A DNA stretch of 64,000 nucleotides, taken from an uncultured Gammaproteobacteria bacterium. GTDB taxonomy: Bacteria; Patescibacteriota; Microgenomatia; UBA10105; UBA927. The position numbers and the translations under genes are program-made. The notes below the pieces were generated by a model that was given only the letters and a program-made list of their open reading frames with translations, was not told the origin of the DNA and searched no databases. The stretch lies in assembly GCA_964361785.1 (NCBI GenBank), contig CAYIBX010000001.1, positions 5,857 to 69,856 of the forward strand, in the 5' to 3' direction. Each line of letters begins with the position of its first letter. Position 1 is the first letter of the stretch. Positions 22,490 to 45,973 of the stretch are shown in pieces.

Positions 22490-22490
22490 T

Positions 22491-23672: not shown

Positions 23673-23679
23673 TGAATCT

Positions 23680-24558: not shown

Positions 24559-25534
24559 TACCGTTTGGAACGGAAAGAAAGTGCTCGTAACCGGTGGCAC
24601 AGGGTTTATTGGTAGTCACGTGGTAGAACAGCTTGTGTCTCTGAAAGCAAAGGTTAGGGTACTTGATCGAATGAGAGATGGAGTCATAAAAAATATTGAA
24701 TATCTTAAAGATACGGTTCAATTTATTTCTGGTGATTGTGCTGACGAGTCTGAGGCGTTAAAAGCTTGTGAAGGGCAACAAGTGGTGATGAATTTGGCAG
24801 CCAAAGTGGGCGGCATAGCCTACAACAGCACGCATCAGGCCACGATGCTTTTTGATAACTTAAAAATTGCCTCTGTCATGATTGAAGCGGCAAGATGCAC
24901 AAACGTTGAGCGATTTTTGGTTGTATCATCTGCGTGTATTTATCCTGCTGATGCCAAAATTCCCACTGCCGAATCAGAAGGATTTTTACGAGAGCCAGAG
25001 CCGACTAATGGCGGATACGGATGGGCCAAACGCATGGCAGAAAAGCTAGGAATGTATTATAGTCAGCAGTATGGAATGAAAGTGGGAATTGTGAGGCCAT
25101 ATAATGCATATGGACCTCGTGATCATTTCGATCCAGAGAAGTCTCACGTGATACCCGCACTTATCAAACGAGTGTTTGATGGAGAGAATCCATTGAGAGT
25201 GTGGGGATCCGGCAACCAGACAAGAGCATTTTTGTATGTTGAGGATTTTGCCAAGGGTCTCATTGACGCCATAGACAAATATCCCGTAGCAGACCCAGTT
25301 AATATAGGAACTAATGAAGAAGTATCTATAAATACACTTGTGGAAATTATTGTATCCATATCAGGAAAGAATACTAAAATTGAATTTGATACATCAAAAC
25401 CTGATGGAAGCCCTAGAAGAAATAGCGATAATACCAAAGCAATTGAAAAAATTGGATTTCGTGCACAAACAAAATTAGTCGATGGTCTCAAGAAAACAAT
25501 TGATTGGTATAAAAAAGAGCAAAATATATCATGA
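24539..25534 (+). CDS. GDP-L-fucose synthase / GDP-colitose synthase-like SDR (Fcl/ColC family)
   Basis: '[15 protein letters not shown]' and '[34 protein letters not shown]' closely track the Fcl signature 'SSCIYP...EPTNEPYAIAK'. Start at the internal ATG, 'MPQSKN'. Confidence 0.6.
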
Positions 25535-26577
25535 AAAAGAAAAAAGTCTTGATTAGTGGTTCAGCGGGGCTTATCGGATCTGAAGCGGTGCGATTTTTTT
25601 GTGCCAAAGGATTTGAAGTGCATGGAATTGATAATAATATGCGCAAGTATTTTTTTGGTGCTGATGGAGATACAAGTTGGATAAGAAAGAAGTTAACCAA
25701 AGAACAAGAATCATACGTTCATCACACAGTAGACATACGCGACGAGAAAAAGATTAGTGATATTTTCAAAAAAAATCGGTTTGATCTCATCATCCATACT
25801 GCAGCTCAACCATCTCATGACTGGGCAGCCAAAGAGCCCATCACTGACTTTTCTATCAATGCAGTCGGAACGCTTATCATACTTGAAAATCTTCGTACAT
25901 ATGCCAAAGATGCGACGTTTATATTCACTTCTACAAATAAAGTGTATGGAGACATACCAAATCGTCTGCCAGTTATAGAACAGAAGACTCGATATGAACT
26001 ACCTCCGTCTCATAAATTTTATAAAGGGATAGATGAATCGATGAGCATAGATCAGTGTACACACAGTGTTTTTGGCGTATCCAAATCAGCAGCTGACCTC
26101 ATGGTACAGGAATATGGGCGTTATTTTGGTCTTCATACAGTTATTTTTCGTGGCGGGTGTCTCACTGGCCCCGCTCATTCAGCAGCCAAACTTCATGGAT
26201 TTTTGGCGTACCTTATTAAGTGTATTAAAGAAGGACGACAGTATTCGATAATTGGATATAAGGGGAAGCAAGTGCGCGACAACATTCATTCTCACGATTT
26301 GATCTCGGCGTTTTATGAAGTATATAAAAAGCCACGAGTGGGAGAAGTATATAATATCGGTGGATCACGGCACTCTAATGTTTCGATTCTTGAGGCAGTG
26401 GCAAAGATCGAAGCCATTGTGGGCAAGAAGGCGAAAATAAAGTATATAGATACACCTCGAATTGGCGACCATATCTGGTATATTTCTGATGTGTCGAAGT
26501 TTCAATCACACTATCCGAATTGGCAGTATACCTATGATGGCGATAGGATACTAGAAGATATATGCAACGTCGCCTGA
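25531..26577 (+). CDS. NAD-dependent epimerase/dehydratase (SDR)
   Basis: '[30 protein letters not shown]' and 'YGVSKSAAD'. Confidence 0.65.
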
Positions 26578-28594: not shown

Positions 28595-29700
28595 AAGATC
28601 GAATATTTCGATACGATACCATATTTATGTACGGCAGTTTGCAAAGTGTAGGTCATATAATGGATTACTTTATCAAACATACCAAAAAACTTGTTGTATA
28701 CATTATCATGCCGAGAGTAAATGGTAGTGCAAATGACCTACGCGTGTATGAACGAGGCATAGTAAAGCACGAGCATAGCGTTGGTTCGTCAACAAATATA
28801 TTTCTCTATTATTTCATATGGTGGTATTACCAAAATCTTTTTTTGCTGCAATACTTTTCCCGTTCAGAACAAGTATTAGTGTTTGGTGGACATCCTGTAG
28901 CGTTTATCGGTATGAGTATGATGAAATTATTACGAAGGCTGAAGTATGCATACTGGATAGGAGATTATTATCCTCCAGTTCATTGGTCGCTCATCCTTTT
29001 TGAAAAACTTAAAAAATATTACCATGATCGAATACCCTTTACGTATTATTTAAGTGACAGAATTAATAATATTTATAACAGCAAGGTCATTACACTTCCT
29101 AATAAAAAGACAGTTATGTGGGGAGTAAAGCCACATACGGGATCAAAAAAGCAAATTACTTCACCGTTTAAATTATTGTTTGTAGGTGTCATACGACCAT
29201 CACAGGGAATTGAGGACTTACTGCTGTTTATAAAAAATACTCCGAAGGTACAACTTTCAATTGTCGGAGTTTGTGAGAAAATACTTTATGAAAAATACGT
29301 TACACTGATTGAGAAGTATCACGTTGCTGATCGAGTTTGGTTCCCAAATACGTTTGTGAGTGATGAAGAACTCAAAAAGTTAAGTAATCGTCATCACATA
29401 GGAATCGCACTGTATGAAAAGGGAGAGCATACGGCTACACATTATACGGATCCTGGGAAAGTGAAAACGTATATAGAATTAGGTCTGCCAGTTATAATGA
29501 CGAATACATCTGCTATAGCGGTGTATATAAAGCAATATATGGCTGGTGAGCTCGTGAACGGAACAAAAGAGCTTCCTGCGGCGTTAGAACGAATGAAGAG
29601 ACAATATGGCGTATATCAAAAAGGTGTACATGCGTTAGCACAGTATTTTGAGTATGAAAAATATTACAGTCAATCATTTCAGGTGTTAGAAACCATATGA
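28591..29700 (+). CDS. GT-B-type glycosyltransferase-like protein, paralog of 26562..27722
   Basis: Shared C-terminal motif block with 26562..27722. Confidence 0.45.
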   Translation: MKDRIFRYDTIFMYGSLQSVGHIMDYFIKHTKKLVVYIIMPRVNGSANDLRVYERGIVKHEHSVGSSTNIFLYYFIWWYYQNLFLLQYFSRSEQVLVFGGHPVAFIGMSMMKLLRRLKYAYWIGDYYPPVHWSLILFEKLKKYYHDRIPFTYYLSDRINNIYNSKVITLPNKKTVMWGVKPHTGSKKQITSPFKLLFVGVIRPSQGIEDLLLFIKNTPKVQLSIVGVCEKILYEKYVTLIEKYHVADRVWFPNTFVSDEELKKLSNRHHIGIALYEKGEHTATHYTDPGKVKTYIELGLPVIMTNTSAIAVYIKQYMAGELVNGTKELPAALERMKRQYGVYQKGVHALAQYFEYEKYYSQSFQVLETI

Positions 29701-30674
29701 AACGACCAACAATAAGCGTCATTATTCCTGTATATAATGTAGAAAGCATTTTGAAAGAAGTGCTTGTTAGCCTCATTATACAAACATACCCGATAGAGGA
29801 AATAATTCTCATTGATAATCATTCCGATGATAAATCTGTGAAAGTAGCAGATGAATTCATTCGAACTCACAAAAAAATAGCTATTCGCATCATTAAACGA
29901 AAACAAACATACGGACTTTCGCATAGTTATAATTTAGGAGCAAAGGAGACGAAATCAGAGTATATCGTGACACTTCATTCAGATAGCATGTTGCCTACTA
30001 AATTTGAGCTTTCACGGTTAATGGAGCCTTTAATAAAAAACACTGTTGATTATGTGGCGGCAATGCCGATTGTTGTGCATCGAAAACAAGAATGGGATAC
30101 CTACAATTTTTGGCAAAAGTGCCTTTTTGCTCAAGTAGTAGGAAAAGAACAGCATTCGTTAAATGGCAAATTTGATGCATACAGACGAGTAGTATTCATG
30201 TCGATTGAAGGTTTTGATATAAAAAATTTTAATCATTATATTGGTTCGGAAGATGCAGATATGAATTTTCGATTAGCTTCGCGAGGAAAGATAGCCGTTA
30301 CAAATGCTTGTGTAGTCCATCTTCATGGAAAAGATGCAAATTATAGCATGCAAGACTGGATGAAACGTAGAAAATTTTTAGCAATATCGTATGCTTTGCA
30401 GATACGGCTTCATTGGAGAGTAATGGGAGTTGGTTTTATTCCTTTTCTCGTGAAGCCTATGTTAGTTGTTTTGACAGTTTTATCATTTTTATATCCGTTA
30501 CTTGTGCTGCCATTAATTATTTTTCCTTTCTGGTATATGCGGACCATGTTTATAGATTCGGTATCGCGAAGAGATAGAAATATACTACTGTTACCGATTG
30601 TTGTGATCTGTTTGGTGTTTCTCGAAACATTCTGGATGACGAAAGGTTTGTTTGTAAGGAGATATTCGTTATAA
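29697..30674 (+). CDS. Family 2 glycosyltransferase with C-terminal TM segments
   Basis: 'ISVIIPVYNVESIL...ILIDNHSDDKS' followed by a hydrophobic C-terminus. Confidence 0.7.
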   Translation: MKRPTISVIIPVYNVESILKEVLVSLIIQTYPIEEIILIDNHSDDKSVKVADEFIRTHKKIAIRIIKRKQTYGLSHSYNLGAKETKSEYIVTLHSDSMLPTKFELSRLMEPLIKNTVDYVAAMPIVVHRKQEWDTYNFWQKCLFAQVVGKEQHSLNGKFDAYRRVVFMSIEGFDIKNFNHYIGSEDADMNFRLASRGKIAVTNACVVHLHGKDANYSMQDWMKRRKFLAISYALQIRLHWRVMGVGFIPFLVKPMLVVLTVLSFLYPLLVLPLIIFPFWYMRTMFIDSVSRRDRNILLLPIVVICLVFLETFWMTKGLFVRRYSL

Positions 30675-30684
30675 TGACTGTATT

Positions 30685-31467
30685 ATGAAGACTATTATTT
30701 TATCCGGTGGATTAGGATACAGATTAAAGGAAGAAACGGAGTTTAAACCAAAGCCAATGGTGCTTATTGGTGGAAAGCCTATTTTGTGGCATATCATGAA
30801 GATTTATGCGCATCATGGCTTTAACGAATTTATTATTGCATTAGGATATAAAGGTGATTACATAAAAGATTATTTCTTAAATCAAAAATATTTTTTGCAT
30901 GATTTTACGCTTCACACAAAAACAGGAGCAACGAAGATTCATAGGGATAAGACGGATGGAAAGTTAATTGATGATTTTAAAATTACCTTCGTTGATACCG
31001 GTCAGGAAACGTTACCCGGAGAGAGAATATTGCGATGTAAGGATTACATTCCTGCTGATGAAGATTTTATGGTGACGTATGGAGACGGGGTAGGCGATAT
31101 AAATATCTCTAAACTCGTCGCATTTCACAAAAAAATGAAGACAATTGGTACGATTAGCGGCGTTCATCCAAGAAGTAAATATGGACTCATACAGCTCGGT
31201 GTTAAACGGGCGGTATTTCAGTTTAAGGAAAAGCCGGTACTCAAGGACTGGATTAACGGTGGCTTTATGATTTTTAACAGAAAGTTTTTTGATAATTTGC
31301 GGGAAGGTGAAACTGAGCACCCAGCGCTTCAACGCCTAGCGAAACAACAACAGCTATCGATGTATCAACATGAAGGATTTTGGCACTGCATGGACACATA
31401 TGCTGATGTAGAGCATTTGAATGCATATTGGCAAGATACCCAACCATGGAAGCTATGGGAAAATTAA
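30685..31467 (+). CDS. rfbF: Glucose-1-phosphate cytidylyltransferase
   Basis: 'MKTIILSGGLGYRLKEETEFKPKPMVLIGGKPILWHIMKIYAHHG' is nearly collinear with the RfbF/DdhA N-terminus. 260 aa. Confidence 0.85.
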   Translation: MKTIILSGGLGYRLKEETEFKPKPMVLIGGKPILWHIMKIYAHHGFNEFIIALGYKGDYIKDYFLNQKYFLHDFTLHTKTGATKIHRDKTDGKLIDDFKITFVDTGQETLPGERILRCKDYIPADEDFMVTYGDGVGDINISKLVAFHKKMKTIGTISGVHPRSKYGLIQLGVKRAVFQFKEKPVLKDWINGGFMIFNRKFFDNLREGETEHPALQRLAKQQQLSMYQHEGFWHCMDTYADVEHLNAYWQDTQPWKLWEN

Positions 31468-32405
31468 AAGGCAAAATTTTTTTGGTTACTGGTGGCACAG
31501 GATTTGTTGGAAGCCATTTAGTAGAATCCCTTATCTCTGAAGGATCTCGTGTAATCGTGCCTTTTCGAAGTCTTGATCCAAGTTCATATTTTACCACACA
31601 AAAACTTGCAAAGAAAGTAACGCTTGTTTCAGGTGATCTCAAAGACTTTTCTCGAATGTTTGACATTGTAACCAAATATGAAATAGATTATATTTTTCAT
31701 TTAGGGGCACAGGCGATTGTCACTACGGCGTATAATAATCCACGAGAAACCATCGTCACAAACGTTTTGGGGACCACGAATATACTTGAGGCGGCACGAC
31801 TCTATGGAAGAGTTAAGGGTATAATAGTCGCTTCGTCTGACAAAGCGTATGGCAAGTCAACAGGAAAGTATGTTGAGTCTGATCCCCTTCGTGGCGATCA
31901 TCCATATGAGGTTTCAAAATCTTCTGCAGATTTAATTTCTTTTGCGTACGCTAAGACTTATAATATGCCCATTGTAGTAACTCGATTTGGTAATATATAC
32001 GGAGAAGGGGATTTAAATTTTAACAGAATTATTCCGAGCGTGTTAAAATCCATAATAACTAATTCGATGCTTGAAGTTAGAAGTGACGGAACATTTGTGC
32101 GTGATTACGTATACATAAAGGATGTAGTAGCCGGATATAGAGTTCTTCTTGATCATATTGATAAGGTTGGAGGAGAAGCATATAATTTTTCATCAGATGA
32201 TTCGTTAACAGTTCTTGAGGTTATCAAGACGATCGAAACAATATTGAAGAAAAAGGTACAATACTCGATTCTTAATACACAGCAAAATGAAATACCCTAC
32301 CAGTCATTAAATTTTGACAAGGTGAAAGGATTGGGATACGCTCCATCGTACACGTTGAAAAAAATCTTAGCGAAAGTATATTTGTGGTATTTAAATAATA
32401 TATGA
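31428..32405 (+). CDS. rfbG: CDP-glucose 4,6-dehydratase-like SDR
   Basis: '[21 protein letters not shown]' and 'YEVSKSSAD'. It lies between two cytidylyltransferases. The true start may be the ATG at 31455. Confidence 0.6.
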   Translation: MARYPTMEAMGKLKGKIFLVTGGTGFVGSHLVESLISEGSRVIVPFRSLDPSSYFTTQKLAKKVTLVSGDLKDFSRMFDIVTKYEIDYIFHLGAQAIVTTAYNNPRETIVTNVLGTTNILEAARLYGRVKGIIVASSDKAYGKSTGKYVESDPLRGDHPYEVSKSSADLISFAYAKTYNMPIVVTRFGNIYGEGDLNFNRIIPSVLKSIITNSMLEVRSDGTFVRDYVYIKDVVAGYRVLLDHIDKVGGEAYNFSSDDSLTVLEVIKTIETILKKKVQYSILNTQQNEIPYQSLNFDKVKGLGYAPSYTLKKILAKVYLWYLNNI

Positions 32406-33187
32406 AAGTAATTATTTTATGCGGCGGGCGGGGTATACGACTTTTTGATGAGTCTGTGTATATTCCTAAGGGGATGGTTCGACTTGGGTATCGGCCAATA
32501 TTGTGGCACATCATGAAGCGTTTTGCTTTAGCAGGTCATACTGATTTTATCCTTGCATTAGGCACGAAAGGAGAGCTTATCCGAGATTACTTTTTGCATT
32601 ACGACAGATACGTAGCGGATACACAAATCACTCTTGGATCAGAAAAGATTGAAATATTGTCGAAACATCAGGAAGAAAAATGGCGTATTACTTTTGTGGA
32701 TACGGGCGAGAATTCTAATTCAGGATCCCGGATACACAGATGCAAAGAATATATTCAGGATGAAGATTTTTTTATTACCTACGCGGATACTCTAGCGGAT
32801 GTGGATATCCCCAGATTAGTCCAATTTCACAAAAAATTAAATAAAACTCTCACACTTACGGGTGTTATACCGCCATATCGCGAAGGAGAGTATATCGTAG
32901 AGAAGAATTTAATCACAGGTCCGTATGACGCAAAGAAAGATGTTGCGGTAAAGCGTCAGAGGTATGTGAATGGCGGATATATGATGGCAAACACTAAGCT
33001 CATGTCATATTTGACATCTTTTAGTGAATGCCGTTTAGAATCGGAAGTGTTTACGAATTTAATAAAAGAAAATCAACTTGCGTTATTTCCACATCATAAA
33101 TTTTGGCGATGGCTTGATACGGATAGGGATTATCTTTATTTGCAGGAATTAGTGGATAAAAACGCAATGTATTGGTTGCAGGAATAA
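32402..33187 (+). CDS. Glucose-1-phosphate cytidylyltransferase, second paralog
   Basis: 'MKVIILCGGRGIRLFDESVYIPKGMVRLGYRPILWHIMKRFALAGH'. Confidence 0.8.
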   Translation: MKVIILCGGRGIRLFDESVYIPKGMVRLGYRPILWHIMKRFALAGHTDFILALGTKGELIRDYFLHYDRYVADTQITLGSEKIEILSKHQEEKWRITFVDTGENSNSGSRIHRCKEYIQDEDFFITYADTLADVDIPRLVQFHKKLNKTLTLTGVIPPYREGEYIVEKNLITGPYDAKKDVAVKRQRYVNGGYMMANTKLMSYLTSFSECRLESEVFTNLIKENQLALFPHHKFWRWLDTDRDYLYLQELVDKNAMYWLQE

Positions 33188-33200
33188 GGAGTAATGCTCT

Positions 33201-33737
33201 ATGAGTAAGGAACAGAGAGTTGTTATGATTGCCGGTAATGGATTCGACGAAGTGGAAGTAAAAGTTCCGATGGAATATCTGCCAAAGAATGGTATTGAAC
33301 TTGATCTGGCCACGCTATACAGAACTGCCGACGTGCCGATAGAAGGAAAAAAGGGGTATCGGATAGAGCCGACCGTACATGTTTCTGATTTAAAGCCGGA
33401 AAATTATGATGCGGTATTGCTCCCTGGCGGGCATGAGGGGCCGGACCGCGTACGCGGAAATGAGACGGTCATTAAATTCGTTCAGGACATGAATGCATCT
33501 GGAAAGATCGTTGCGGCGATTTGCCATGGGCCATGGGTGCTTTGTACTGCCGAAATTCTTCATGGAAAAAAAGCGACATGTTACCCTGCTATGAAAGCCG
33601 ATCTTGTTCATGCAGGAGCTATATATGTTTCTGAAAATGTTGTGGCAGATGGAAATCTTATTACAGCAGACAGACCAGAAACGAGTGAGGCGTGGTGTAA
33701 TAAAATCGTAGAAGTTTTACATAAGAAACAAGAATGA
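33201..33737 (+). CDS. DJ-1/PfpI family protein
   Basis: 'AAICHGPWVL' nucleophile-elbow motif. An AAGGAG RBS lies 9 nt upstream. Confidence 0.8.
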   Translation: MSKEQRVVMIAGNGFDEVEVKVPMEYLPKNGIELDLATLYRTADVPIEGKKGYRIEPTVHVSDLKPENYDAVLLPGGHEGPDRVRGNETVIKFVQDMNASGKIVAAICHGPWVLCTAEILHGKKATCYPAMKADLVHAGAIYVSENVVADGNLITADRPETSEAWCNKIVEVLHKKQE

Positions 33738-33787
33738 GGACGCAGCATCCTGATTGAGCGTTTTATTATTCATGATTTCCCATTTTT

Positions 33788-34558
33788 ATGATCAATCGCT
33801 TTTATAGGTCGAAATTTGATATCGAAAATTTGTCCAAACTTCGTACCTCAATTCCTACAGATGTCGATAATTTTAACTATCGGGGTATTGTGGTTAATAA
33901 ACCATGGGGATATGAATATCTATTGTATGAAAATCATGATGTCGCAGCGTGGGTATTGCATTTAAATAATAATCATAAAACATCTATGCATTGTCATCCT
34001 AATAAAAAAACGTCTCTTATAGTTGTTTCAGGTGAAGTTGTATGTAGTACTCTTGAGGGTTGGCTAACGAGAAAGCAGGGAGATGGAATAATCATTGAGG
34101 AAGGGGTATTTCATACCACGCGTGCAGTTTCCAAAGGTGGGGCGCTCGTTATAGAAGTGGAATGTCCACCGAATAAAAAAGATCTTGTTAGGCTAAAAGA
34201 TGCGTATGGTAGGGAAGATCAGGGATATGAGGGAGCCTCTCAAATGTCAAAGAATCTCGACGCATATACCTATGTAGATTTTCATACATATTCCAATGGC
34301 AAAAAAATGGAAAAATTACTTGATCACACAACGCTTACAATTGCTCATCATCCATATACCAAAGACGTTGGTGAATGTATTCGAAAAGCACGCGGGGAGC
34401 TTTTTTGTTTACTCAAGGGGAAGCTGCATGATGTTGATGGTCGATTGATTTTATCTGCTGGTGAAGTGGCGTTAGTTTCTTCATTGCGCAATATGACACA
34501 CATAGAAAATTTCTCTGATATACTCTATCTCACCTTATCTTATGGCAAAAACAGTTAA
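33788..34558 (+). CDS. Cupin-domain protein
   Basis: 'HCHPNKKTSLIVVSGEV' cupin motif. Confidence 0.5.
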   Translation: MINRFYRSKFDIENLSKLRTSIPTDVDNFNYRGIVVNKPWGYEYLLYENHDVAAWVLHLNNNHKTSMHCHPNKKTSLIVVSGEVVCSTLEGWLTRKQGDGIIIEEGVFHTTRAVSKGGALVIEVECPPNKKDLVRLKDAYGREDQGYEGASQMSKNLDAYTYVDFHTYSNGKKMEKLLDHTTLTIAHHPYTKDVGECIRKARGELFCLLKGKLHDVDGRLILSAGEVALVSSLRNMTHIENFSDILYLTLSYGKNS

Positions 34559-36356
34559 ACTCTCAGATTATATCGTCTCATTTTTTGTAAATAACGGCAT
34601 TCGTGACGCGTTTATGGTGACTGGTGGCGGGGCTATGCATCTGAATGAATCGTTTGGTAATAATCCGCGTTTACGATATTGGTGTAATCATCATGAGCAG
34701 GCTTCGGCAATAGGAGCAGAAGGATATACTCGGCTTTCTGGAAAAATTGCCGCTGTACAGGTTACTACTGGACCGGGAGGAACGAACGCAATTACCGGAC
34801 TTATAGGTATGTGGCTTGATTCTATTCCCGGTCTGTATATTTCCGGTCAGGCGAAGTTAGAGATGACGGTAGGTGATACCAAAGTCCGGCAAATCGGTTT
34901 ACAGGAAATACCGATTGTTCCGGTTGTTCAATCAATTACTAAATATGCGGTCATGATTACGGATCCGAATAAGATTAAATATCATTTAGAAAAAGCTTTA
35001 TATTTGGCTACAACTGGCCGACCAGGACCCTGTTGGATAGATGTTCCTCTCGATATACAGGCAGCAATGATTGATCCGGAGAGTTTGCCGGCATTCTCTC
35101 CGAATGAAGTTTCTATTGATATCGATAGTGAAACATCACTTCAGAATGCAGTAGATAAAACTGTGACGCTTTTAAAAATCAAGAAGCGCCCGGTGATGCT
35201 CGCCGGTAACGGAATTCGTCTTTCCGGCGCAGCTGATTTATTTCTTCGACTTGCTGAACGTCTCAACATACCTGTATTGACTGCGGTAACGGCTCATGAC
35301 TTGATCCCATCAGATCACCCGCTTTTCTTCGGCCGCCCGGCATTATTTGGTGAGCGCGTAGGAAATTTTGTCGTGCAGAATTGTGACTTACTGATCAGTA
35401 TCGGTACACGACTTTCGACGTGGACCATTTCGTATGCCTATGACACGTTTGCGCGTGCTGCTACACACGTTATGGTGGATATTGACCGAGAGGAACTCAA
35501 AAAGAAAACAGTACATCCAGATATACTAGTTTGTGCCGACGCAAAGATATTTATAGAAAGATTAAGTCAACAAACAAAAAATACCATATTTCCTCACCGT
35601 GAGGAATGGTTTGATTACTGCAAAAGAATCAGAACGGCATATCCTGCAGTGACGACTGAAATGAAGAGTCAAAAAAAATATGTTAATTCTTATTATTTTA
35701 TGGACGTGCTTTCAGATTGTATGAAGGAAAATGAAGTTATCGTTGTGGGTGATGGCACGGCATTTACGTGTACTTATCAGAGTATCCGAATTAAAAAAGG
35801 CCAACGCCTGATCGGAAACATCGGTTCTGCTCCGATGGGATATGATATCTCTGCAGCAATCGGTGCTTGTATTGCCAATGGGAAAAAACGAGTTGTATGT
35901 ATAGCAGGTGACGGGAGTATTCAGCTTAATATCCAGGAATTGCAGACAATTGTGCATCATAAATTTCCGATAAAAATATTTCTTATCAATAATAATGGAT
36001 ATCTTGCGATACGTAACACGCAAAAGAATTTTTTTAATCATCTTGTAGGAGAGGGTCCTAAAAGTGGTATTAGCTTTCCTAATATGCAAAAAATTGCAAA
36101 AGCGTATGGAATTACATCTGATCGTGTATCGACACATAAGAGCTTAAAGAAAAAGATACAAAAGGCACTTGCGGCACGCGGGCCCTATATACTTGAGATA
36201 ATGATGGATCCATGGCAGCCGTTAATTCCGAAAGTTTCTTCATATGTGCGTGCAGATGGTAAGCTCATCTCTAAGCCTATGGAAGATATGTGGCCATTTT
36301 TACCCCGAGAAGAGTTTCTAAAGAATATGATCGTTCCTCCCTTGAATGAGACATGA
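34542..36356 (+). CDS. Thiamine-diphosphate-dependent enzyme (acetolactate synthase/YerE-like)
   Basis: 'TGPGGTNAITGL' and the ThDP-binding motif 'IAGDGSIQLNIQEL...NN'. 604 aa. Confidence 0.8.
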   Translation: MAKTVKLSDYIVSFFVNNGIRDAFMVTGGGAMHLNESFGNNPRLRYWCNHHEQASAIGAEGYTRLSGKIAAVQVTTGPGGTNAITGLIGMWLDSIPGLYISGQAKLEMTVGDTKVRQIGLQEIPIVPVVQSITKYAVMITDPNKIKYHLEKALYLATTGRPGPCWIDVPLDIQAAMIDPESLPAFSPNEVSIDIDSETSLQNAVDKTVTLLKIKKRPVMLAGNGIRLSGAADLFLRLAERLNIPVLTAVTAHDLIPSDHPLFFGRPALFGERVGNFVVQNCDLLISIGTRLSTWTISYAYDTFARAATHVMVDIDREELKKKTVHPDILVCADAKIFIERLSQQTKNTIFPHREEWFDYCKRIRTAYPAVTTEMKSQKKYVNSYYFMDVLSDCMKENEVIVVGDGTAFTCTYQSIRIKKGQRLIGNIGSAPMGYDISAAIGACIANGKKRVVCIAGDGSIQLNIQELQTIVHHKFPIKIFLINNNGYLAIRNTQKNFFNHLVGEGPKSGISFPNMQKIAKAYGITSDRVSTHKSLKKKIQKALAARGPYILEIMMDPWQPLIPKVSSYVRADGKLISKPMEDMWPFLPREEFLKNMIVPPLNET

Positions 36357-37326
36357 ACATATGAAAATAGCTTTTTTTGACCTTCTACAATCTGAGCAGA
36401 GAGTATTCAAAATAATTTCTGCAAATTACGATTGTGTGTTTAATAAATCGTCACTTACGAAACAAATTGCCTCCACAATTTCTGACACGCAAGTTCTCTA
36501 CATACGAAGTATTGCAAAACTTACAAAAGAAATACTTGTTGAGCTTCCACAACTGGAATTTATCACGACAAGATCGACAGGGTTTGATCATATCGACCTA
36601 GAGTACTGCAAGAAACATAAGATAGTAGTCTCGAGTGTTCCGACGTATGCCACGAATGCAGTTGCTGAGCATACATTTGCATTATTGCTCGGGTTATCCA
36701 GAAAACTATTATTGTGCATCAATCAAACGAAGCATGGCATTGTCGACGCAGAAAAATTGCGCGGGTTTGAATTGAAAGGCAAGACATTGGGAGTTATAGG
36801 ATTTGGAAACATAGGTTCACGGGTCGTTGAAATAGCGCGCGGATTTGACATGCATATACTTGTTACGACAAAACATCCGAGCACTTCGCGCGCAAATAAG
36901 CATAGAGTTCAGTTTGTCGATCTACCAACATTATTACAAAAAAGCGATATCGTAAGTCTTCATGTGCCGCTGACTGATGAAACCAAACATATGATCAATC
37001 AAAACAATATACACCTATTTAAAAAAGATAGTATCCTTATCAATACTTCAAGGGGACCGGTAGTAGATACAGATGCATTAATTTTAGGTTTAGAGACAGG
37101 TGTGCTCGCAGGAGCGGGGATTGATGTTTTGGAAGATGAGCGCGTGTTTAAACGTAAATATCGCACTCTGCGTAATAGGTCGCGGTTTCTTTTGGAACAT
37201 AACAACGTTATTATTACACCGCATAATGCATATAATACCAAAGAAGCATATCAAACCATTTTAAATCTTAGTGCAGAAAATATTAGTGCTTATATAAAAG
37301 GAAAACCAATAAATCGGGTACTATAA
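36346..37326 (+). CDS. D-isomer-specific 2-hydroxyacid dehydrogenase family, NAD-binding
   Basis: 'GKTLGVIGFGNIGSRVVEIARGFDMHIL'. Confidence 0.75.
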   Translation: MRHEHMKIAFFDLLQSEQRVFKIISANYDCVFNKSSLTKQIASTISDTQVLYIRSIAKLTKEILVELPQLEFITTRSTGFDHIDLEYCKKHKIVVSSVPTYATNAVAEHTFALLLGLSRKLLLCINQTKHGIVDAEKLRGFELKGKTLGVIGFGNIGSRVVEIARGFDMHILVTTKHPSTSRANKHRVQFVDLPTLLQKSDIVSLHVPLTDETKHMINQNNIHLFKKDSILINTSRGPVVDTDALILGLETGVLAGAGIDVLEDERVFKRKYRTLRNRSRFLLEHNNVIITPHNAYNTKEAYQTILNLSAENISAYIKGKPINRVL

Positions 37327-37328
37327 AA

Positions 37329-37964
37329 TTGGTTATGATAAAAGCTGTGTTATTTGATTACGATGGTGTTCTTGCTGATACTATGAGGGACAATGATATT
37401 GCGTGGAAAAACGCGTTTGCTAAACAAGGGGTGACATTGGGGATTATGGAGTATCTACTGCTTGAGGGAATGACTCCACACGCTATAGCTACCAAACTTA
37501 CAAAAGACCATGGTCTTTCTGAGAGCGTTATAGCTGATATCATAGAAGATAAGAAAAAATATTATAAGGAAAATAATTCTTTTCGATTGTATCCAGGTGT
37601 TCAAAAATTTATCACGTCACTTCACCATCGAGGTATCAAACTTGCTTTGGTTTCAGGAGCAGCATCTCATCGTATAGAAGAGATGACTCCGAAAGAATTG
37701 CTTGTGCTTTTTGATGTCATCATAACGGCTGATGATGAAATTGCGTCAAAACCAAATCCTGATCCATATTTGAAAGCATTGAAAAAGATTGGAGTATCGG
37801 CCAACGAAGCTGTTGTCGTCGAAAATGCTCCATTAGGTATACAATCGGCAAGAGCGGCCGCTATTTACTGTATTGCCGTAACATCAACCCTTCCCGAAAT
37901 AGTGTTAAAAAATGCAGATAGAGTTGTACAAGATTTTAATGAGTTATCATCTGTTATTGAATAA
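37329..37964 (+). CDS. HAD-superfamily hydrolase (beta-phosphoglucomutase-like)
   Basis: 'IKAVLFDYDGVLADT' motif I. Confidence 0.75.
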   Translation: MVMIKAVLFDYDGVLADTMRDNDIAWKNAFAKQGVTLGIMEYLLLEGMTPHAIATKLTKDHGLSESVIADIIEDKKKYYKENNSFRLYPGVQKFITSLHHRGIKLALVSGAASHRIEEMTPKELLVLFDVIITADDEIASKPNPDPYLKALKKIGVSANEAVVVENAPLGIQSARAAAIYCIAVTSTLPEIVLKNADRVVQDFNELSSVIE

Positions 37965-37969
37965 TATAT

Positions 37970-38848
37970 ATGAAGACTCGAATTTTTCTTACGGGAGGCA
38001 GCGGTTTTATTGGAAGAAATATTTTAGAGCAGCTAGGTGAAAAGTACGCTATTGTAGCTCCCACACATACGCAGTTGGATCTTGGAAATGTTGACAGAGT
38101 GGAAGCTTTTTTAAAACAGTATCCTGTGGATGTTGTAGTGCACACGGCAAATATAGGGGGAAATATAGCAGAAAAGAATATATCTGGCGTCATGGCATAT
38201 AATTTACGTATTTTTTTTAATCTTGTACATAATCATAGATATTTCAAAAAGTTTATTTATTTAGGTTCAGGTGCACAATACGGAAAACAGTCATCAATTA
38301 TACGTGTGCGTGAAGAAGAATTGGATACGCGCATACCATCTGACGAGTTCGCATTGTACAAATATGTGTGTGCACAATTTATAGAAGGTACACCACTAAA
38401 CACGGTAAATCTCAGTATTTTCGGAATATATGGAAAATATGAAGAATATGCGTTTCGATTTATTTCACAGAGCCTTTGTCGCGCGTTGTTTGATTTACCA
38501 ATTGTAATAAAACAAAATGTTAAATTTGACTATATTTATGTAGATGATTTTATTCGTATCCTTGAGTATTTTATAGAACATGATCAACAATATCGAACAT
38601 ATAACATCGGGACCGGCATACCGATTGATCTGGTTACAATAGCCCAGCGTATTGTTATAATTACAAAAAAGAATATCCCTATACTTTTTGAAAAGAAGGG
38701 GCTGAATTTAGAGTATACATGCGACACAGCTAGACTACGCAAAGAATTGTCTGGCTTTCAATATACAGATTTTGACACAGCACTGTCTCGGCTCTACGAT
38801 TGGTATAAGAATAGGAAAACGTTATTGCGGAAGGAATTACTCATTTAA
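37970..38848 (+). CDS. NAD-dependent epimerase/dehydratase (SDR)
   Basis: 'RIFLTGGSGFIGRNILEQL'. Confidence 0.65.
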   Translation: MKTRIFLTGGSGFIGRNILEQLGEKYAIVAPTHTQLDLGNVDRVEAFLKQYPVDVVVHTANIGGNIAEKNISGVMAYNLRIFFNLVHNHRYFKKFIYLGSGAQYGKQSSIIRVREEELDTRIPSDEFALYKYVCAQFIEGTPLNTVNLSIFGIYGKYEEYAFRFISQSLCRALFDLPIVIKQNVKFDYIYVDDFIRILEYFIEHDQQYRTYNIGTGIPIDLVTIAQRIVIITKKNIPILFEKKGLNLEYTCDTARLRKELSGFQYTDFDTALSRLYDWYKNRKTLLRKELLI

Positions 38849-38852
38849 TATT

Positions 38853-39752
38853 ATGATGAAAAAAATTACAGATTCTCAATATTTTATTAGATTGTATCTC
38901 TATTATTTTGTATTTCAGGCACTACTGAAAAGTGTGTTGCCAACACTTCTTAATACAGAATTAAGCTTGTTTCGACGGTTACACACCCTCGCGTTGGAGA
39001 CTAGATTTTTTTTGAAAGCAGTATATATAAAATTATTTAGGATTCATGTAACGCATGAATCGTTTTTTGGCTATACAATGGAATTTCCTAATTACCTAGA
39101 ATTTGCGCTCCTTTTTATCGAGATATTCGGTATTCAAGAATATAAACTGAATAAGGAGAAAAACCGCATGATGATTATTGATTGTGGCAGCAGTTGGGGT
39201 ATGTCCCTGCTATATTTTAAACATATTTGTCCAGATGCGAAGATCGTTGCGCTTGAAGCAAATAAAAATACTGTTACTTACTTAATTAAGAATATAAAGA
39301 CGAATCACTTACATGATGTTCGGGTGCAGGTAGCATTTGTGACGGGTTTGAAAAAAAAGAATCATTCGTTTTATACATTTCAATCCAATGACGGATGGTC
39401 AGTCTCGGATACCGGAGCCTCTGATTTCGTTGAAGGACGAAAAGATTTGGTGGTTTCTCAGGTGAGGTCGATTCGTTTATCGCAGTTTCTTGGATCAAAA
39501 AAAGTAGATGTCGTGAAGCTTGATATAGAAGGTATGGAAGGGGAGGTTCTAGCGGAATCAAGGAATTATTTAGATCGCGTTGGGGAGTTTGTCATAGAAT
39601 ATCATCCAGGAATGAATAAGAAAAAAAATTCGTTGAAGAGAATCCTCACGTTATTGGAATTAAATAATTTTATCGTGAATGTTAATAATACAAAATCTAT
39701 CATAACAAATGAACATTCATTGAAAATGATACATGCAATGCGTAAAAAATAG
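38853..39752 (+). CDS. FkbM-family methyltransferase
   Basis: 'MIIDCGSSWGMSLLYF...VVKLDIEGMEGEVL'. Start at the internal ATG, 'MMKKITDSQY'. Confidence 0.65.
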   Translation: MMKKITDSQYFIRLYLYYFVFQALLKSVLPTLLNTELSLFRRLHTLALETRFFLKAVYIKLFRIHVTHESFFGYTMEFPNYLEFALLFIEIFGIQEYKLNKEKNRMMIIDCGSSWGMSLLYFKHICPDAKIVALEANKNTVTYLIKNIKTNHLHDVRVQVAFVTGLKKKNHSFYTFQSNDGWSVSDTGASDFVEGRKDLVVSQVRSIRLSQFLGSKKVDVVKLDIEGMEGEVLAESRNYLDRVGEFVIEYHPGMNKKKNSLKRILTLLELNNFIVNVNNTKSIITNEHSLKMIHAMRKK

Positions 39753-39816
39753 TTTCTTCAATTTTAAAAATATGACTGTTAGAGTTTCACGGGAAAAAAT
39801 TGTTTAAACGTCTGTT

Positions 39817-39844
39817 TGTGATTTGATCTATACCTCGATACAAT
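39817..39844 (+). promoter_or_regulatory. Candidate promoter TTGATC-16-TACAAT upstream of the RfbH-like gene
   Basis: Read in the 103-nt intergenic gap. -10 'tacaat' at 39839-39844, 11 nt before the ATG at 39856. Confidence 0.35.
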
Positions 39845-39855
39845 AGCATCCATAT

Positions 39856-41154
39856 ATGAAAATCGCATTAGCCTCACACATTCGTGCACATTATAAAGCT
39901 ACATTTAACAAATCGAAATTTATTCCAAACGTAACCCCTGTGCCGGTTTCGGGGAAAGTGTTTGATGAAAAAGAAATGATAAACGGCATAGAAGCCGTGC
40001 TTGATGGCTGGTGGACAGAGGGACGATTTGCTGAAAGTTTTGAACGAAAGTTTCGAGATTATCTCGGGGTGAAATATGTAAGCTTGGTGAATTCTGGATC
40101 GTCTGCAAATCTTATCGCACTCTCGGCTCTTACGAGTAATGTGTTTGGTGAACGGGCATTAAAGGTGGGTGATGAGGTGATTACCGTCGCCACAGGATTT
40201 CCTACTACTGTGAATCCAATTTTACAAAATGGTCTTATACCAGTATTTATCGATAATGATTTAGGGACAAAGAATGCGACGGTGCAGGCGATACGAAAAG
40301 CGATAACTCCTAAAACCAAAGCCATCATGATGGCGCACACACTCGGTAATCCTATCCCGCTAAGCGGGATTATGGAACTTGTGAAAAAGCACAATCTTTG
40401 GTTTATAGAAGATTGTTGTGACGCGTTAGGATCTACATACAATGGAAAGTTAGTTTCGACTTTTGGACATGTCGCGACGTTTTCATTTTATCCTGCTCAC
40501 CAAATTACGACGGGTGAAGGAGGAGCGGTAGTAACCAGTAATCCGTTTATCCATAAAGCGATACGGCAGTTTCGAGATTGGGGAAGGGATTGTTGGTGTG
40601 ACACGGGGAAAGATAATACCTGCGGCAAACGTTTTCGTTGGCAGCTTGGAGATTTACCATTTGGGTATGATCATAAGTATATCTATTCGCAGGTTGGATA
40701 TAATCTAAAACTTACTGATATGCAGGCAGCTATAGGACTGGCACAGCTTGATAAGTTGCCGAAATTTATAAAGGCAAGAAAAGCCAACTACCAGGCGTTG
40801 CTAAAAGGACTATCCAAGTATAAAAAATATTTCTTGTTTATGGATGTAGAAAAGGGAGCTGATCCCTGTTGGTTTGGATTTCCTATAGTCATTGCTGATG
40901 GTGCACCATTTACTAGGTTGGAGCTTGTAGAGTGGCTCGAGGATCATAAGATAGGGACGCGAAATCTATTTGCTGGTAATTTATTAAAACATCCGGCATA
41001 TCGTGGAAGAAAGGATATGCGAGTCGTGGGTCTGTTATCCAATTCCGATAAAATTATGAATGATGGATTTTGGATTGGTGTGTATCCAGGAATCACTCCT
41101 AATATGTTCTCCTATGTGATCTCCGTAATAAGCGAGTTTATATCCCAGTATTAA
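39856..41154 (+). CDS. rfbH: CDP-6-deoxy-D-xylo-4-hexulose 3-dehydrase (E1)-like, DegT family
   Basis: 'VNSGSSANLIALSALTSNVFGERALKVGDEVITVATGFPTTVNPILQNGLIPVFIDNDLGT' is collinear with RfbH/DdhC. 432 aa. Confidence 0.8.
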   Translation: MKIALASHIRAHYKATFNKSKFIPNVTPVPVSGKVFDEKEMINGIEAVLDGWWTEGRFAESFERKFRDYLGVKYVSLVNSGSSANLIALSALTSNVFGERALKVGDEVITVATGFPTTVNPILQNGLIPVFIDNDLGTKNATVQAIRKAITPKTKAIMMAHTLGNPIPLSGIMELVKKHNLWFIEDCCDALGSTYNGKLVSTFGHVATFSFYPAHQITTGEGGAVVTSNPFIHKAIRQFRDWGRDCWCDTGKDNTCGKRFRWQLGDLPFGYDHKYIYSQVGYNLKLTDMQAAIGLAQLDKLPKFIKARKANYQALLKGLSKYKKYFLFMDVEKGADPCWFGFPIVIADGAPFTRLELVEWLEDHKIGTRNLFAGNLLKHPAYRGRKDMRVVGLLSNSDKIMNDGFWIGVYPGITPNMFSYVISVISEFISQY

Positions 41155-41161
41155 AGTATCT

Positions 41162-42031
41162 ATGAGTAAAATATTGCAAAGCATGTTAGGTTTTTTGTAT
41201 AAGATAGTTGGACCAGATTGGGTATTTTTTATTCTCATGGGTCCTGTGGGTCAGACCCTGATAAAAATATTCATACGACTTAGTAAAGATCCGATTTGTT
41301 TTCGTTCTAAATATGGATTTGCTATGGAAGTTTCCCCTTATGAATACTGGATGAGCGGCTATATGTTTTTGGGTGAAACAAACCCGCAAGAGACAGCAGT
41401 TATTGTCAGTGTCCTTCGTGTTGGTGATACCATGATAGACGCAGGCGCGCATGCTGGTTGGTATAGTCTTGTTGCTAGCCAATGCGTAGGGAGCGAGGGA
41501 TCTGTTCTGTCATTTGAGCCCAATCCAGTATGTGCAGATGTATTGAATCGTAATATCAAAATGAACGGATTTGATAATATTCAGATTATCCAGGATGCAC
41601 TTTCCAATAAGAGTGGCACATCACGCTTGTGGGTGGGGGATGATATGGGAGGATCACTGATCAAAGATCAAGCACAACACATAACAAAAAATAAAGTGAA
41701 AAGCATTACAGTAAAAACTCTTCGACTCGATGATTTTTTGAAAAAGCAGAAAACCATAAAGAATATCCGATGCATAAAAGTTGATGTTGAGGGAGCAGAG
41801 GTAGAAGTTTTGTTAGGGGCAAAAAAAATCCTACTTCAACATAAGCCAATAATTTTAGCAGAAGTATATTGTAAAGATCAGAAGCAACTAAGAAGAAGAG
41901 ATAAACTTTTTGTGTATTTAAAATCCTTGGGTTATGAACCGTTTTTGTTCACAAGAGACGGACTGAGAATAACAGAATATACACATATCTCTCATGATAC
42001 AATCAACATTGTTTTAAAACCCCATGTTTAA
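41162..42031 (+). CDS. FkbM-family methyltransferase
   Basis: 'MIDAGAHAGWYSLVAS...IRCIKVDVEGAEVEVL'. Confidence 0.65.
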   Translation: MSKILQSMLGFLYKIVGPDWVFFILMGPVGQTLIKIFIRLSKDPICFRSKYGFAMEVSPYEYWMSGYMFLGETNPQETAVIVSVLRVGDTMIDAGAHAGWYSLVASQCVGSEGSVLSFEPNPVCADVLNRNIKMNGFDNIQIIQDALSNKSGTSRLWVGDDMGGSLIKDQAQHITKNKVKSITVKTLRLDDFLKKQKTIKNIRCIKVDVEGAEVEVLLGAKKILLQHKPIILAEVYCKDQKQLRRRDKLFVYLKSLGYEPFLFTRDGLRITEYTHISHDTINIVLKPHV

Positions 42032-42314: not shown

Positions 42315-42805
42315 AATATTTAGCGGTATTGTTTCTTTTGATATGTTCGTTTCTGATTCCACCGAGTGTCAATGCTCAATACAGGTATCCGTGGCCAGGC
42401 ATACTACAGGATCACCCTCTTTATAAAATCAAAGTTTTACGAAATAAGATTATCGAGAAGCTTATTTATAGCCCAGTTCGGAGGGTGGAGTACGACCTCC
42501 TGACTGCGGATAAAATGCTTTATGCAGCAGAGCTTCTGAATACAAAAGGGGAAACAAGACTGGCGAAAGAGACAATTCTTAAAGGAGAGAATTATATGAG
42601 TAAGCTGGTATCTGATTATTTTCACGCGTCTGCATCCGGGTACCGTATTCCAGAATCATTGTCAGTGCGAATAAGCCAAGCGCACGTGGCACATCAGACG
42701 TTGATTATCAATTTGGTCGCCAAAGCTGCACCACAGGACAAAAAAACCTACGAGGATGTGTTATATTTTTCGAGAAAAAATCAAGATATGCTTGAGGGGG
42801 AATGA
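42311..42805 (+). CDS. Secreted hypothetical protein
   Basis: 'MKYLAVLFLLICSFLIPPSVNA' signal peptide. Confidence 0.45.
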   Translation: MKYLAVLFLLICSFLIPPSVNAQYRYPWPGILQDHPLYKIKVLRNKIIEKLIYSPVRRVEYDLLTADKMLYAAELLNTKGETRLAKETILKGENYMSKLVSDYFHASASGYRIPESLSVRISQAHVAHQTLIINLVAKAAPQDKKTYEDVLYFSRKNQDMLEGE

Positions 42806-42848
42806 AGCGAGAACACACAATAATTATGAGAATAATCATTTGAAGCCA

Positions 42849-45625: not shown

Positions 45626-45973
45626 ATGAAAAAAGATATTCAAAAAATGATGCATGACACGGCAAAATGGATTCATGGAAATCCACTGACTTTTTTGGCA
45701 TTTGTCTCCATACTCGTTATAGCTGAAGTATTTGCTTTTCCGATTTCATTAGATGTGCGATTGTTTGGTGCACTATTTTTATATTGGTTTCTTGCTCGTA
45801 TAGGAAAGCTTACGAGTGCGCGAGTGTTTCAATTGTGTATTATTTTGTTGACTGGAATGGTTTTAGGATATCTAATCAGCGGAGCAGCAGCGACTACTGA
45901 GCGTTTGGCCGTTTGGTTTGTATTATTTTTCGTTCTCGGAATATTTACGCAGTGGCGGGAGATAACCGCATGA
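45626..45973 (+). CDS. Small 2-3 TM membrane protein, tandem paralog 2
   Basis: See the previous feature. Its stop overlaps the start of giant paralog 2. Confidence 0.5.
   Translation: MKKDIQKMMHDTAKWIHGNPLTFLAFVSILVIAEVFAFPISLDVRLFGALFLYWFLARIGKLTSARVFQLCIILLTGMVLGYLISGAAATTERLAVWFVLFFVLGIFTQWREITA

Follow-up and report, generated by a model that had tools for sequence, protein, structure and literature searches.

In the yersiniose A pathway, the thiamine diphosphate (ThDP)-dependent enzyme YerE transfers an acetyl carbanion derived from pyruvate onto CDP-4-keto-3,6-dideoxyglucose, after which the branch is reduced by YerF (PMC9306805, PMC12247030). ErwE, MMAR_2332, and MyGE perform the same chemistry with longer hydroxylated keto acids made by cluster-encoded aldolases (PMC9306805, PMC12247030), and JanthE is a characterised YerE-like lyase with ThDP and FAD that joins 2-oxo acids to non-activated ketones (PMC12188165, PMC12247030). 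A 2024 in silico study predicted more than 200 YerE-like clusters (PMC9306805, PMC12247030). Branched-chain deoxy sugars made by YerE-like enzymes are rare and strongly antigenic, and are known mainly from Gram-negative lipopolysaccharide (LPS) and mycobacterial lipooligosaccharides. Here we describe a 13-gene operon within a 64,000-nucleotide stretch of contig CAYIBX010000001.1 (assembly GCA_964361785.1, positions 5,857 to 69,856; hereafter the window) from a Patescibacteria metagenome-assembled genome (MAG) of the candidate phyla radiation (CPR). Its product is probably a CDP-activated 3,6-dideoxyhexose of the yersiniose type, C-branched and O-methylated, that goes into a surface glycan. An earlier note on this DNA had proposed a branched, methylated dideoxyhexose, a fair prediction given that RfbF, RfbG-type, and E1 genes occur together with a YerE-like ThDP gene and no IlvN in the window; its view that Yersinia is the only known case of ThDP-dependent branching is contradicted by the characterised ErwE, MMAR_2332, MyGE, and JanthE and by the predicted clusters. 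A literature search, to which the 2024 cluster survey's own list was external, found no link between the CPR and CDP-dideoxyhexoses or yersiniose.

The window, with a GC content of ~39–40%, is one long + strand glycan-biosynthesis region containing GT1, GT2, GT4, and GT-C glycosyltransferase genes, numerous genes for extended short-chain dehydrogenases/reductases (SDRs), a DegT aminotransferase gene, methyltransferase genes, and genes for large polytopic membrane proteins. The ThDP enzyme and the bicupin described below each match a protein of a 'Patescibacteria group bacterium' MAG at 100% identity, which places the host in the CPR. At positions 29697–42031 the genes overlap or lie 0–103 nt apart, forming a near gap-free operon with the following order (window coordinates; aa, amino acids).

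29697..30674, + strand: GT2 glycosyltransferase, directly upstream of RfbF1 (PF00535, E 2.6e-25)

30685..31467, + strand: RfbF1, glucose-1-phosphate cytidylyltransferase-like (TIGR02623, 280.8 bits, full length)

31428..32405, + strand: RfbG-like NDP-hexose 4,6-dehydratase of the short type (PF16363, E 3e-50; PF01370)

32402..33187, + strand: RfbF2, a more divergent cytidylyltransferase paralog (TIGR02623, 223.4 bits)

33201..33737, + strand: DJ-1/PfpI family protein (PF01965, E 2.4e-51; TIGR01382, 157.3 bits, cutoff 139)

33788..34558, + strand: bicupin, 256 aa, weakly similar to phosphomannose isomerase (PMI) (Cupin_2, E 1.8e-7)

34542..36356, + strand: ThDP-dependent carboligase, YerE-like, 604 aa (PF02776, PF00205, PF02775)

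36346..37326, + strand: D-isomer 2-hydroxyacid dehydrogenase, D-2-HADH (PF02826, PF00389)

37329..37964, + strand: HAD-IA hydrolase with a DxDG motif (PF13419, E 9e-30); a phosphatase, pyrophosphatase, or mutase

37970..38848, + strand: extended SDR of 292 aa, SDR292 (PF01370, E 3e-26)

38772..39752, + strand: FkbM-family methyltransferase 1 (PF05050, E 3.4e-11; TIGR01444, 71.7 bits, cutoff 37.7)

39856..41154, + strand: RfbH/E1, CDP-4-keto-6-deoxy-D-glucose 3-dehydrase, a pyridoxamine phosphate and [2Fe-2S] enzyme (NF011936, 662.7 bits, cutoff 423)

41162..42031, + strand: FkbM-family methyltransferase 2 (PF05050, E 8e-22; TIGR01444, 109.4 bits, cutoff 37.7)

Chance matches are ruled out by E-values of 1e-20 to 1e-199 and by synteny that is kept in other genomes. 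The mechanically called open reading frames (ORFs) probably start too far upstream for the RfbG-like gene (31446 or 31455), D-2-HADH (36361), HAD (37335), and FkbM1 (38853); the bicupin ORF overlaps the start of the ThDP gene, which itself overlaps its neighbours in the operon. Pfam and NCBIfam matches recover on the + strand every ORF that had been named previously (two RfbF, the RfbG-like, ThDP, dehydrogenase, HAD, SDR, FkbM, and RfbH genes). The earlier note had placed both FkbM genes within 30685–41154, which is correct for one of them, the second lying just past that end at 41162–42031, and it had missed two ORFs inside the same interval, those for DJ-1/PfpI and the bicupin.

Judged by its active-site residues, RfbH is a genuine E1 3-dehydrase. 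It scores 517 bits to the Yersinia pseudotuberculosis E1 sequence (3BCX), and H215 aligns with E1 H220, at the position occupied by the Schiff-base Lys in aminotransferases. The [2Fe-2S] ligands (C-X57-C-X1-C-X7-C) are also kept, with C187/C188, C246, C248, and C256 corresponding to E1 C192/C193, C251, C253, and C261. An aminotransferase with the conserved Lys, the alternative raised in the earlier note, is ruled out by the His at that position and the kept Fe-S cysteines. The other core genes are more divergent. RfbF2 scores 177 bits to Salmonella typhi RfbF (1TZF) and keeps the equivalents of R15, K25, and R111 in the alignment; the same residues are kept in RfbF1 by inspection, and T14 of RfbF is replaced by Y in RfbF1 and by I in RfbF2. 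The RfbG-like protein carries a Y160xxxK motif and an S-D-K motif at 136–139, the D-K pair of which we take to be a signature of CDP-glucose-type dehydratases.

The ThDP enzyme has the three-domain ThDP fold, a catalytic Glu (E52), and the GDG-X(24-27)-N motif (G456-D457-G458...N483/N484), and its middle domain matches PF00205 with 113.8 bits. Its best solved relative is JanthE from Janthinobacterium sp. HH01 (8RPH; also 8RPI and 8RPJ), with 440.5 bits over residues 4–596. The best acetohydroxyacid synthase (AHAS) scores 245.9 bits, plant and bacterial AHAS structures alike giving ~245 bits, and the C-terminal tail of the window enzyme aligns with JanthE and is uncovered by the AHAS alignments. 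The window enzyme carries the canonical GDG in its ThDP motif, where JanthE has an unusual CDG, and the JanthE hotspots Y268 and P293 are replaced by F and W, respectively. No IlvN or other ilv-type domain is present in the ~50 window ORFs scanned by Pfam (of 56 with at least 150 aa, a few being left unscanned), and thus no IlvN partner is found in the window. These comparisons support assignment of the ThDP enzyme, by sequence, to a sugar-linked YerE-like group (the JanthE-type clade) and not to the housekeeping AHAS.

A scan of one genome per species reveals at least 592 loci with relatives of the ThDP enzyme (45–54% identity) in Campylobacter, Clostridium, Bacteroidales, Planctomycetota, Acidobacteriota, the CPR, and archaea. 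ORFs were called in the best 80 of these, many of which are incomplete at their flanks, and compared with the window genes; RfbG-like genes are found in 58, RfbH in 42, RfbF1 homologs (40–81% identity) adjoining the ThDP gene in 42, and SDR292 homologs (35–57% identity) adjoining it in 30, across phyla. Full 10-kb flanks are available for 37 of the loci; RfbH occurs in 26 of these, RfbF in 28, and at least one of the two in 33. In a neighbour-joining tree of 95 sequences and 601 columns, built without YpYerE, ErwE, MMAR_2332, and MyGE, the window enzyme and its CPR orthologs form one clade nested in the RfbF/G/H-linked group, with JanthE just outside the sugar-linked group, a 'ThDPb' paralog more basal, and Escherichia coli IlvB and IlvI as distant outgroups. 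The tree and the linkage favour a sugar role for the ThDP enzyme and, within the set of sequences compared, answer the earlier note's call for an alignment against YerE and IlvB.

Some CPR clusters contain a second ThDP paralog of 592 aa (L085, 15707–17485; L049, 15886–17676) that scores 377 bits to 5AHK, its best PDB match, 366 bits to JanthE, and 310 bits to AHAS. In L085 this second paralog lies between RfbG and SDR292-RfbH and the window-type ThDP enzyme is paired with Ldh_2, such that one sugar cluster contains two carboligases.

The pathway that we propose would start with RfbF1, predicted by homology to form CDP-glucose, which the RfbG-like SDR would convert to CDP-4-keto-6-deoxyglucose. 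RfbH would then remove the 3-hydroxyl group, with electrons presumably coming from a general ferredoxin or flavodoxin system, and the ThDP enzyme would decarboxylate a 2-oxo acid and add the acyl carbanion to the C4 ketone of the sugar, as its similarity to JanthE and its linkage across phyla suggest. SDR292, placed by adjacency, would reduce the new side-chain carbonyl, the FkbM enzymes would O-methylate the product, and the neighbouring GT2 would transfer it. Oxidation of a 2-hydroxy acid to the donor 2-oxo acid by the dehydrogenase would regenerate the NAD(P)H used by SDR292, and DJ-1, the bicupin, RfbF2, and HAD form an accessory set that is typical of the CPR and physically linked to the ThDP enzyme. 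Direct sequence evidence covers the E1 active site and the ThDP motifs, and homology, synteny, and gene fusion point to the other steps.

The operon resembles the yersiniose A cluster of Y. pseudotuberculosis O:6 (DdhA-D, YerE, YerF) in its cytidylyltransferase, 4,6-dehydratase, E1, AHAS-like ThDP enzyme, and NAD(P)H reductase, and in the predicted transfer of an acyl carbanion onto the C4 ketone of CDP-4-keto-3,6-dideoxyglucose followed by branch reduction (PMC9306805, PMC12247030). It differs in having no E3 (DdhD), a short and divergent dehydratase, and a ThDP enzyme of the JanthE type, as well as in the addition of RfbF2, DJ-1, the bicupin, the 2-hydroxyacid dehydrogenase, HAD, and two FkbM genes; moreover, the host is a CPR bacterium and not a Gram-negative bacterium with LPS. 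The erwiniose, caryophyllose, and gastriose clusters (ErwE, MMAR_2332, MyGE) likewise combine a YerE-like enzyme with donor-making enzymes, a reductase, and sometimes a SAM methyltransferase (PMC9306805). There a pyruvate aldolase, in some cases together with an acetaldehyde dehydrogenase, provides the donor, whereas the window has no aldolase and the corresponding slot is occupied by D-2-HADH or, in relatives, Ldh_2.

Exact-protein look-ups and the genome scan identify CPR relatives of the operon in L002 (Roizmanbacteria), L081/L082, L083, L084 (Berkelbacteria), L089, L090, L091, and L092 (Woesebacteria). These share the order RfbF1, RfbG, RfbF2, DJ-1, bicupin, ThDP, dehydrogenase, SDR292, often followed by HAD, FkbM, GT2, and RfbH, with the RfbG-like gene directly after RfbF1. 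The combination of RfbF2 with DJ-1 and the bicupin occurs only in the CPR module loci (L002, L081, L083, L084, L089–L092), DJ-1 is directly upstream of the bicupin in all of these and in the Pacearchaeota locus L037, and HAD is present in L002, L037, L081, L083, L089, and L090 and absent from L091 and L092. In L089, L090, and L091, the gene for the SDR or for HAD is followed by FkbM genes. A GT2 gene directly precedes RfbF1 in L081 (45% identical to that of the window), L089, L090, and L091, and GT2 29697..30674 is a candidate transferase of the pathway sugar. The module (RfbF paralog, DJ-1, bicupin, ThDP, 2-hydroxyacid dehydrogenase, SDR, and often HAD) is conserved and apparently new, and the pathway core is of an already known kind. 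In L090, an NTP_transferase/HAD-like bifunctional gene and a GHMP kinase gene lie upstream of the module (2432–4641), and RfbG is missing between the two RfbF paralogs.

The dehydrogenase slot is occupied by D-2-HADH (PF02826) in the window, L089, and L090, and by the unrelated Ldh_2 (PF02615) in L002, L081, L083, L084, L085, L091, and L092, and the ThDP enzymes beside either type are 77–84% identical to that of the window. Substrates of both dehydrogenase families are 2-hydroxy or 2-oxo carboxylic acids, and such non-orthologous displacement points to a conserved need for 2-hydroxy/2-oxo-acid oxidoreduction. D-2-HADH scores 201 bits to phosphoglycerate dehydrogenase (1WWK) and 198 bits to D-lactate dehydrogenase (3KB6), with similar scores for glyoxylate reductase models, and its nearest relatives outside the cassette are CPR and DPANN proteins named 'D-lactate dehydrogenase' by JGI (45–50% identity); the Ldh_2 partners score best to AllD (ureidoglycolate) and sulfolactate dehydrogenases, below cutoffs. 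D-2-HADH most likely supplies the 2-oxo-acid donor by oxidising a 2-hydroxy acid, and supply of the donor keto acid by accessory genes in YerE-like clusters (PMC9306805) supports the branched-sugar pathway. Oxidation of lactate to pyruvate ranks first among the donor candidates, at somewhat less than even confidence; the branch would then be first an acetyl and later a 1-hydroxyethyl group, and the dehydrogenase and SDR would together be redox-neutral. The further candidates are glycerate to hydroxypyruvate and glycolate to glyoxylate, and glycolate, being achiral, would most easily explain the swap of a D-specific family for a typically L-type one.

The coenzyme M steps ComB-ComC-ComDE use a phosphatase, an Ldh_2 dehydrogenase, and a ThDP decarboxylase. 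By analogy, a series from phospho-2-hydroxy acid through 2-hydroxy acid and 2-oxo acid to ThDP carbanion would suit the HAD, dehydrogenase, and ThDP genes; however, ComB is not a HAD protein, ComDE belongs to another family of ThDP enzymes, and nothing in the window points to sulfonate chemistry. HAD is beta-phosphoglucomutase-like, scoring 94 bits to 3DV9 and 86 bits to BT2127 (3QU2), and matches NF053653 (BT2127-type diphosphatase) at 143.9 bits, below the cutoff.

The accessory bicupin has an AF2 model (pLDDT 90.3) with two cupin barrels. A sequence search against the PDB gave no significant match, and the PDB fold search returned generic bicupins alone (oxalate decarboxylase, quercetinase, BacB, PMI) at TM-scores of 0.3–0.4; CPR homologs carry the names 'hypothetical' or 'mannose-6-phosphate isomerase-like'. 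Among the invariant residues are H68, H70, K73, H109, E123, E125, R135, and R142; the His together with the Lys/Arg residues hint at a metal site and at a substrate that is phosphorylated or a nucleotide. Searching 1.84 billion representative proteins with a profile finds 429 family members at E≤1e-30. Among the best 148 of these, 20 are of fusion length (833–884 aa) with the cupin N-terminal, and the three that were checked by Pfam are full cupin-ThDP proteins; additional fragments in the family are also cupin-ThDP. Single bicupin-ThDP proteins of 850–862 aa are encoded in L037 (Pacearchaeota), L021 (a Nitrospinaceae single-amplified genome), and L027 (a Nitrosomonadaceae MAG). The family also contains cupin-HAD fusions (P0397, P0425, P0452), whose HAD parts are 40–42% identical to the window HAD, and the bicupin is found once behind an Epimerase-family SDR (the SDR-cupin P0410) and once behind an ATP-grasp ligase (P0416). 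The fused cupin of P0417 passes PF01050 (mannose-6-phosphate isomerase; 30.7 against 23.6 bits).

These gene fusions argue that the bicupin, the ThDP enzyme, and HAD are one functional unit. The bicupin could epimerise or keto-isomerise a nucleotide 4-keto sugar before branching consumes the ketone, which fits the SDR-cupin and cupin-ThDP fusions, or it could be a PMI-like hexose-phosphate isomerase working with HAD and RfbF2, in keeping with the one fused cupin that passes the PMI threshold. ManC/AlgA-type enzymes (type II PMI/GDP-mannose pyrophosphorylase) similarly join a nucleotidylyltransferase to a PMI-like cupin, a likeness to which P0417 conforms, although the window cupin is a separate bicupin, elsewhere fused to ThDP or HAD, and the transferase is RfbF-like. 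The DJ-1 protein has a Cys108-His nucleophile elbow.

The cupin-ThDP fusion loci form a different, uncharacterised cluster type. B12-binding radical-SAM enzymes are encoded around the fusion genes (L037, 5252–14217; L021, 2992–13383; L027, 5730–13866), and there are HemN-like radical-SAM genes in L021 and L037, methyltransferase genes in L021 and L027, and NUDIX hydrolase and PhyH dioxygenase genes in L021.

The proposed reductase, SDR292, is a candidate YerF-type reductase of the branch carbonyl, assigned solely by adjacency. In an alignment with 28 homologs the Tyr column of the YxxxK motif holds F in the CPR, H in loci of the Bacteroidota type, and Y in those of the Campylobacter type, and K131 is conserved and Y132 mostly so. 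SDR292 only weakly resembles nucleotide-sugar 4-reductases (GDP-fucose synthase, RmlD).

Several observations weigh against a pathway of the yersiniose type. The ThDP enzyme scores only 232 bits to 5AHK, which we take to be the PpYerE structure. The scores of RfbF1 and RfbF2 are both below the TIGR02623 equivalog cutoff of 300.25, and the RfbG-like protein is below both dehydratase cutoffs (182 bits against 278.45 for the CDP model TIGR02622; 171 bits for the dTDP model TIGR01181), with PDB matches of 137 bits to dTDP-glucose 4,6-dehydratase and 114–116 bits to the CDP-glucose enzyme (1WVG/1RKX). The Pfam scan of window ORFs reveals neither an E3 (RfbI/AscD/DdhD) nor any Fer2 or FNR-type domain. 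Crude motif scans find no plant-type ferredoxin motif in any frame of the window, and an E3-like ORF in only one of 40 RfbH-bearing related loci; E1-type enzymes can be served by general reductases, as in the example of SpnQ. The earlier note's description of the CDP-4-keto-3,6-dideoxyglucose route as established thus agrees with the clustering of RfbF, RfbG-type, and true RfbH genes, and is overstated given the missing E3 and the sub-cutoff RfbF and dehydratase scores. SDR292 lacks a conserved canonical catalytic Tyr. The cupin-HAD fusions and the weak PMI-like signal fit a role in sugar-phosphate supply as well, and the fusion loci L021, L027, and L037 have no RfbF/G/H genes within 10 kb, indicating that the ThDP unit can work in other contexts and calling for caution about a single acceptor for the whole clade. 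The physiological substrates of JanthE are unknown (PMC12188165), and the clade likewise has no member with a known physiological substrate.

Some of these observations would suit a scheme, which we consider unlikely, in which RfbF2, DJ-1, the bicupin, the ThDP enzyme, the dehydrogenase, and HAD make and activate a different building block, and RfbF1, RfbG, and RfbH run in parallel to give an ordinary dideoxyhexose. For example, a sugar phosphate could be extended by acyloin condensation (as by 1-deoxy-D-xylulose 5-phosphate synthase), isomerised by the bicupin, converted by HAD in the role of a mutase or a phosphatase, and then activated by RfbF2. The separate fusions of the bicupin to the ThDP enzyme and to HAD, the PF01050 match of P0417, the beta-phosphoglucomutase-like HAD, the second nucleotidylyltransferase conserved in the module, and the fusion loci without nearby RfbF/G/H would all be accommodated. 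However, the CPR enzymes are nested in a large clade whose sole recurrent neighbours are RfbF, RfbG, RfbH, and SDR, without cupin, HAD, or RfbF2, and L085 retains ThDP-Ldh_2 with RfbF, RfbG, and RfbH in the absence of cupin, HAD, and RfbF2. The nearest characterised enzyme accepts ketones (PMC12247030), and the SDR-cupin fusion P0410 fits a nucleotide-sugar substrate for the cupin. It is still less likely that the product is a common 3,6-dideoxyhexose without a branch, such as those of the abequose, paratose, or ascarylose type, with SDR292 as C4 reductase and the ThDP enzyme and dehydrogenase unrelated to it. Such sugars need at least RfbF, RfbG, and RfbH with an SDR, and the weak likeness of SDR292 to GDP-fucose synthase and RmlD would agree; but the overlap of the ThDP gene with its operon neighbours, its linkage to RfbH or RfbF in 33 of the 37 full-flank loci, and its adjacency to SDR292 in 30 of 80 would be hard to explain if it were unrelated.

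Within a branched-sugar pathway, the 2-hydroxyacid dehydrogenase and not SDR292 could be the YerF-like reductase of the acetyl branch, as the earlier note had suggested and as its overlapping position directly downstream of the ThDP gene and the conservation of the slot in the CPR might imply. We regard this too as having little probability. D-2-HADH and Ldh_2 act on 2-hydroxy/2-oxo carboxylic acids, whereas branching would yield a nucleotide sugar that bears an alpha-hydroxy ketone, and two unrelated folds are exchanged in the slot among relatives with closely similar ThDP enzymes. The slot dehydrogenase is absent from all 80 non-module loci (0/80 for D-2-HADH), where SDR292 is common, which makes SDR292 the better YerF candidate. 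Least probable by far is that the ThDP enzyme is a housekeeping AHAS for branched-chain amino acids. It shares the three-domain fold, the catalytic Glu, and the GDG...NN motif with the AHAS large subunits (IlvB/IlvG/IlvI), which also provide its best NCBIfam names, and JGI labels some homologs 'acetolactate synthase'. It is nonetheless below all AHAS cutoffs, with 338.6 bits against 538.35 for TIGR00118 and ~225–310 bits against 738–1084 for the PRK models (~300 against 738–976 among them), the JanthE score is nearly twice that to AHAS, and the extra C-terminal tail is common to JanthE. The Pfam scan of window ORFs finds no IlvN, IlvC, or IlvD, the gene lies inside a glycan operon of a Patescibacteria MAG, and the tree places it apart from IlvB and IlvI; a housekeeping AHAS is thus rejected on scores, gene context, and tree.

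Beyond the yersiniose-type pathway itself, we tentatively suggest, as a possibility that is not favoured, that the CPR extension of the YerE-type pathway (DJ-1, metal bicupin, second cytidylyltransferase, and swappable 2-hydroxyacid dehydrogenase) makes a branched sugar unseen in any glycan that decorates the episymbiont surface. Examples would be a glycoloyl/dihydroxyethyl or formyl/hydroxymethyl branch, or branching after keto-isomerisation or epimerisation by the cupin, and at least one Pacearchaeota (DPANN) archaeon would share the core of DJ-1, cupin-ThDP fusion, and HAD. The CPR add-on module, the dehydrogenase swap, and the cupin fusions are most likely new relative to the known YerE-type core, the add-on set being undescribed so far. 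Such a pathway in bacteria with minimal genomes and a host-attached life suggests investment in an elaborate surface sugar. The bicupin-ThDP fusion, the swappable dehydrogenase, DJ-1, and the second RfbF provide handles for predicting the sugar structure, and the naturally occurring cupin fusions may also indicate the way in which the acceptor is prepared. For biocatalysis, the clade, with at least 592 genomic loci, may represent a large and as yet unused source of ketone-accepting ThDP carboligases.

The genes surrounding the operon include six tandem ORFs (1129–9149 and 11556–13202) encoding polytopic membrane proteins of ~510–550 aa, the first of which (1129–2733) matches the PMT_2/PMT families of GT-C glycosyltransferases. 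Four pairs among five of these are significantly related (30–38% identity), and 6007–7530 has no significant match to the others; together they look like a GT-C paralog array upstream of the sugar operon. An ATPase gene with AAA_14 and DUF4143 matches (14232–15593) is embedded among the glycosyltransferase genes. Three large ORFs follow the operon immediately downstream (42756–45284, 45913–49578, and 49545–51566; 842, 1221, and 673 aa); they have no Pfam match, and each has ~7–9 transmembrane-like segments. The 842- and 1221-aa products are 36% identical over 643 aa, and possible roles for the three are those of a glycan polymerase, a flippase, or a novel GT-C protein. A second nucleotide-sugar pathway is located upstream of the operon (21554–26577) and encodes an SDR, a DegT aminotransferase (22491–23672), a methyltransferase, and two more SDRs; this block also precedes the module in the relatives L081 and L089.

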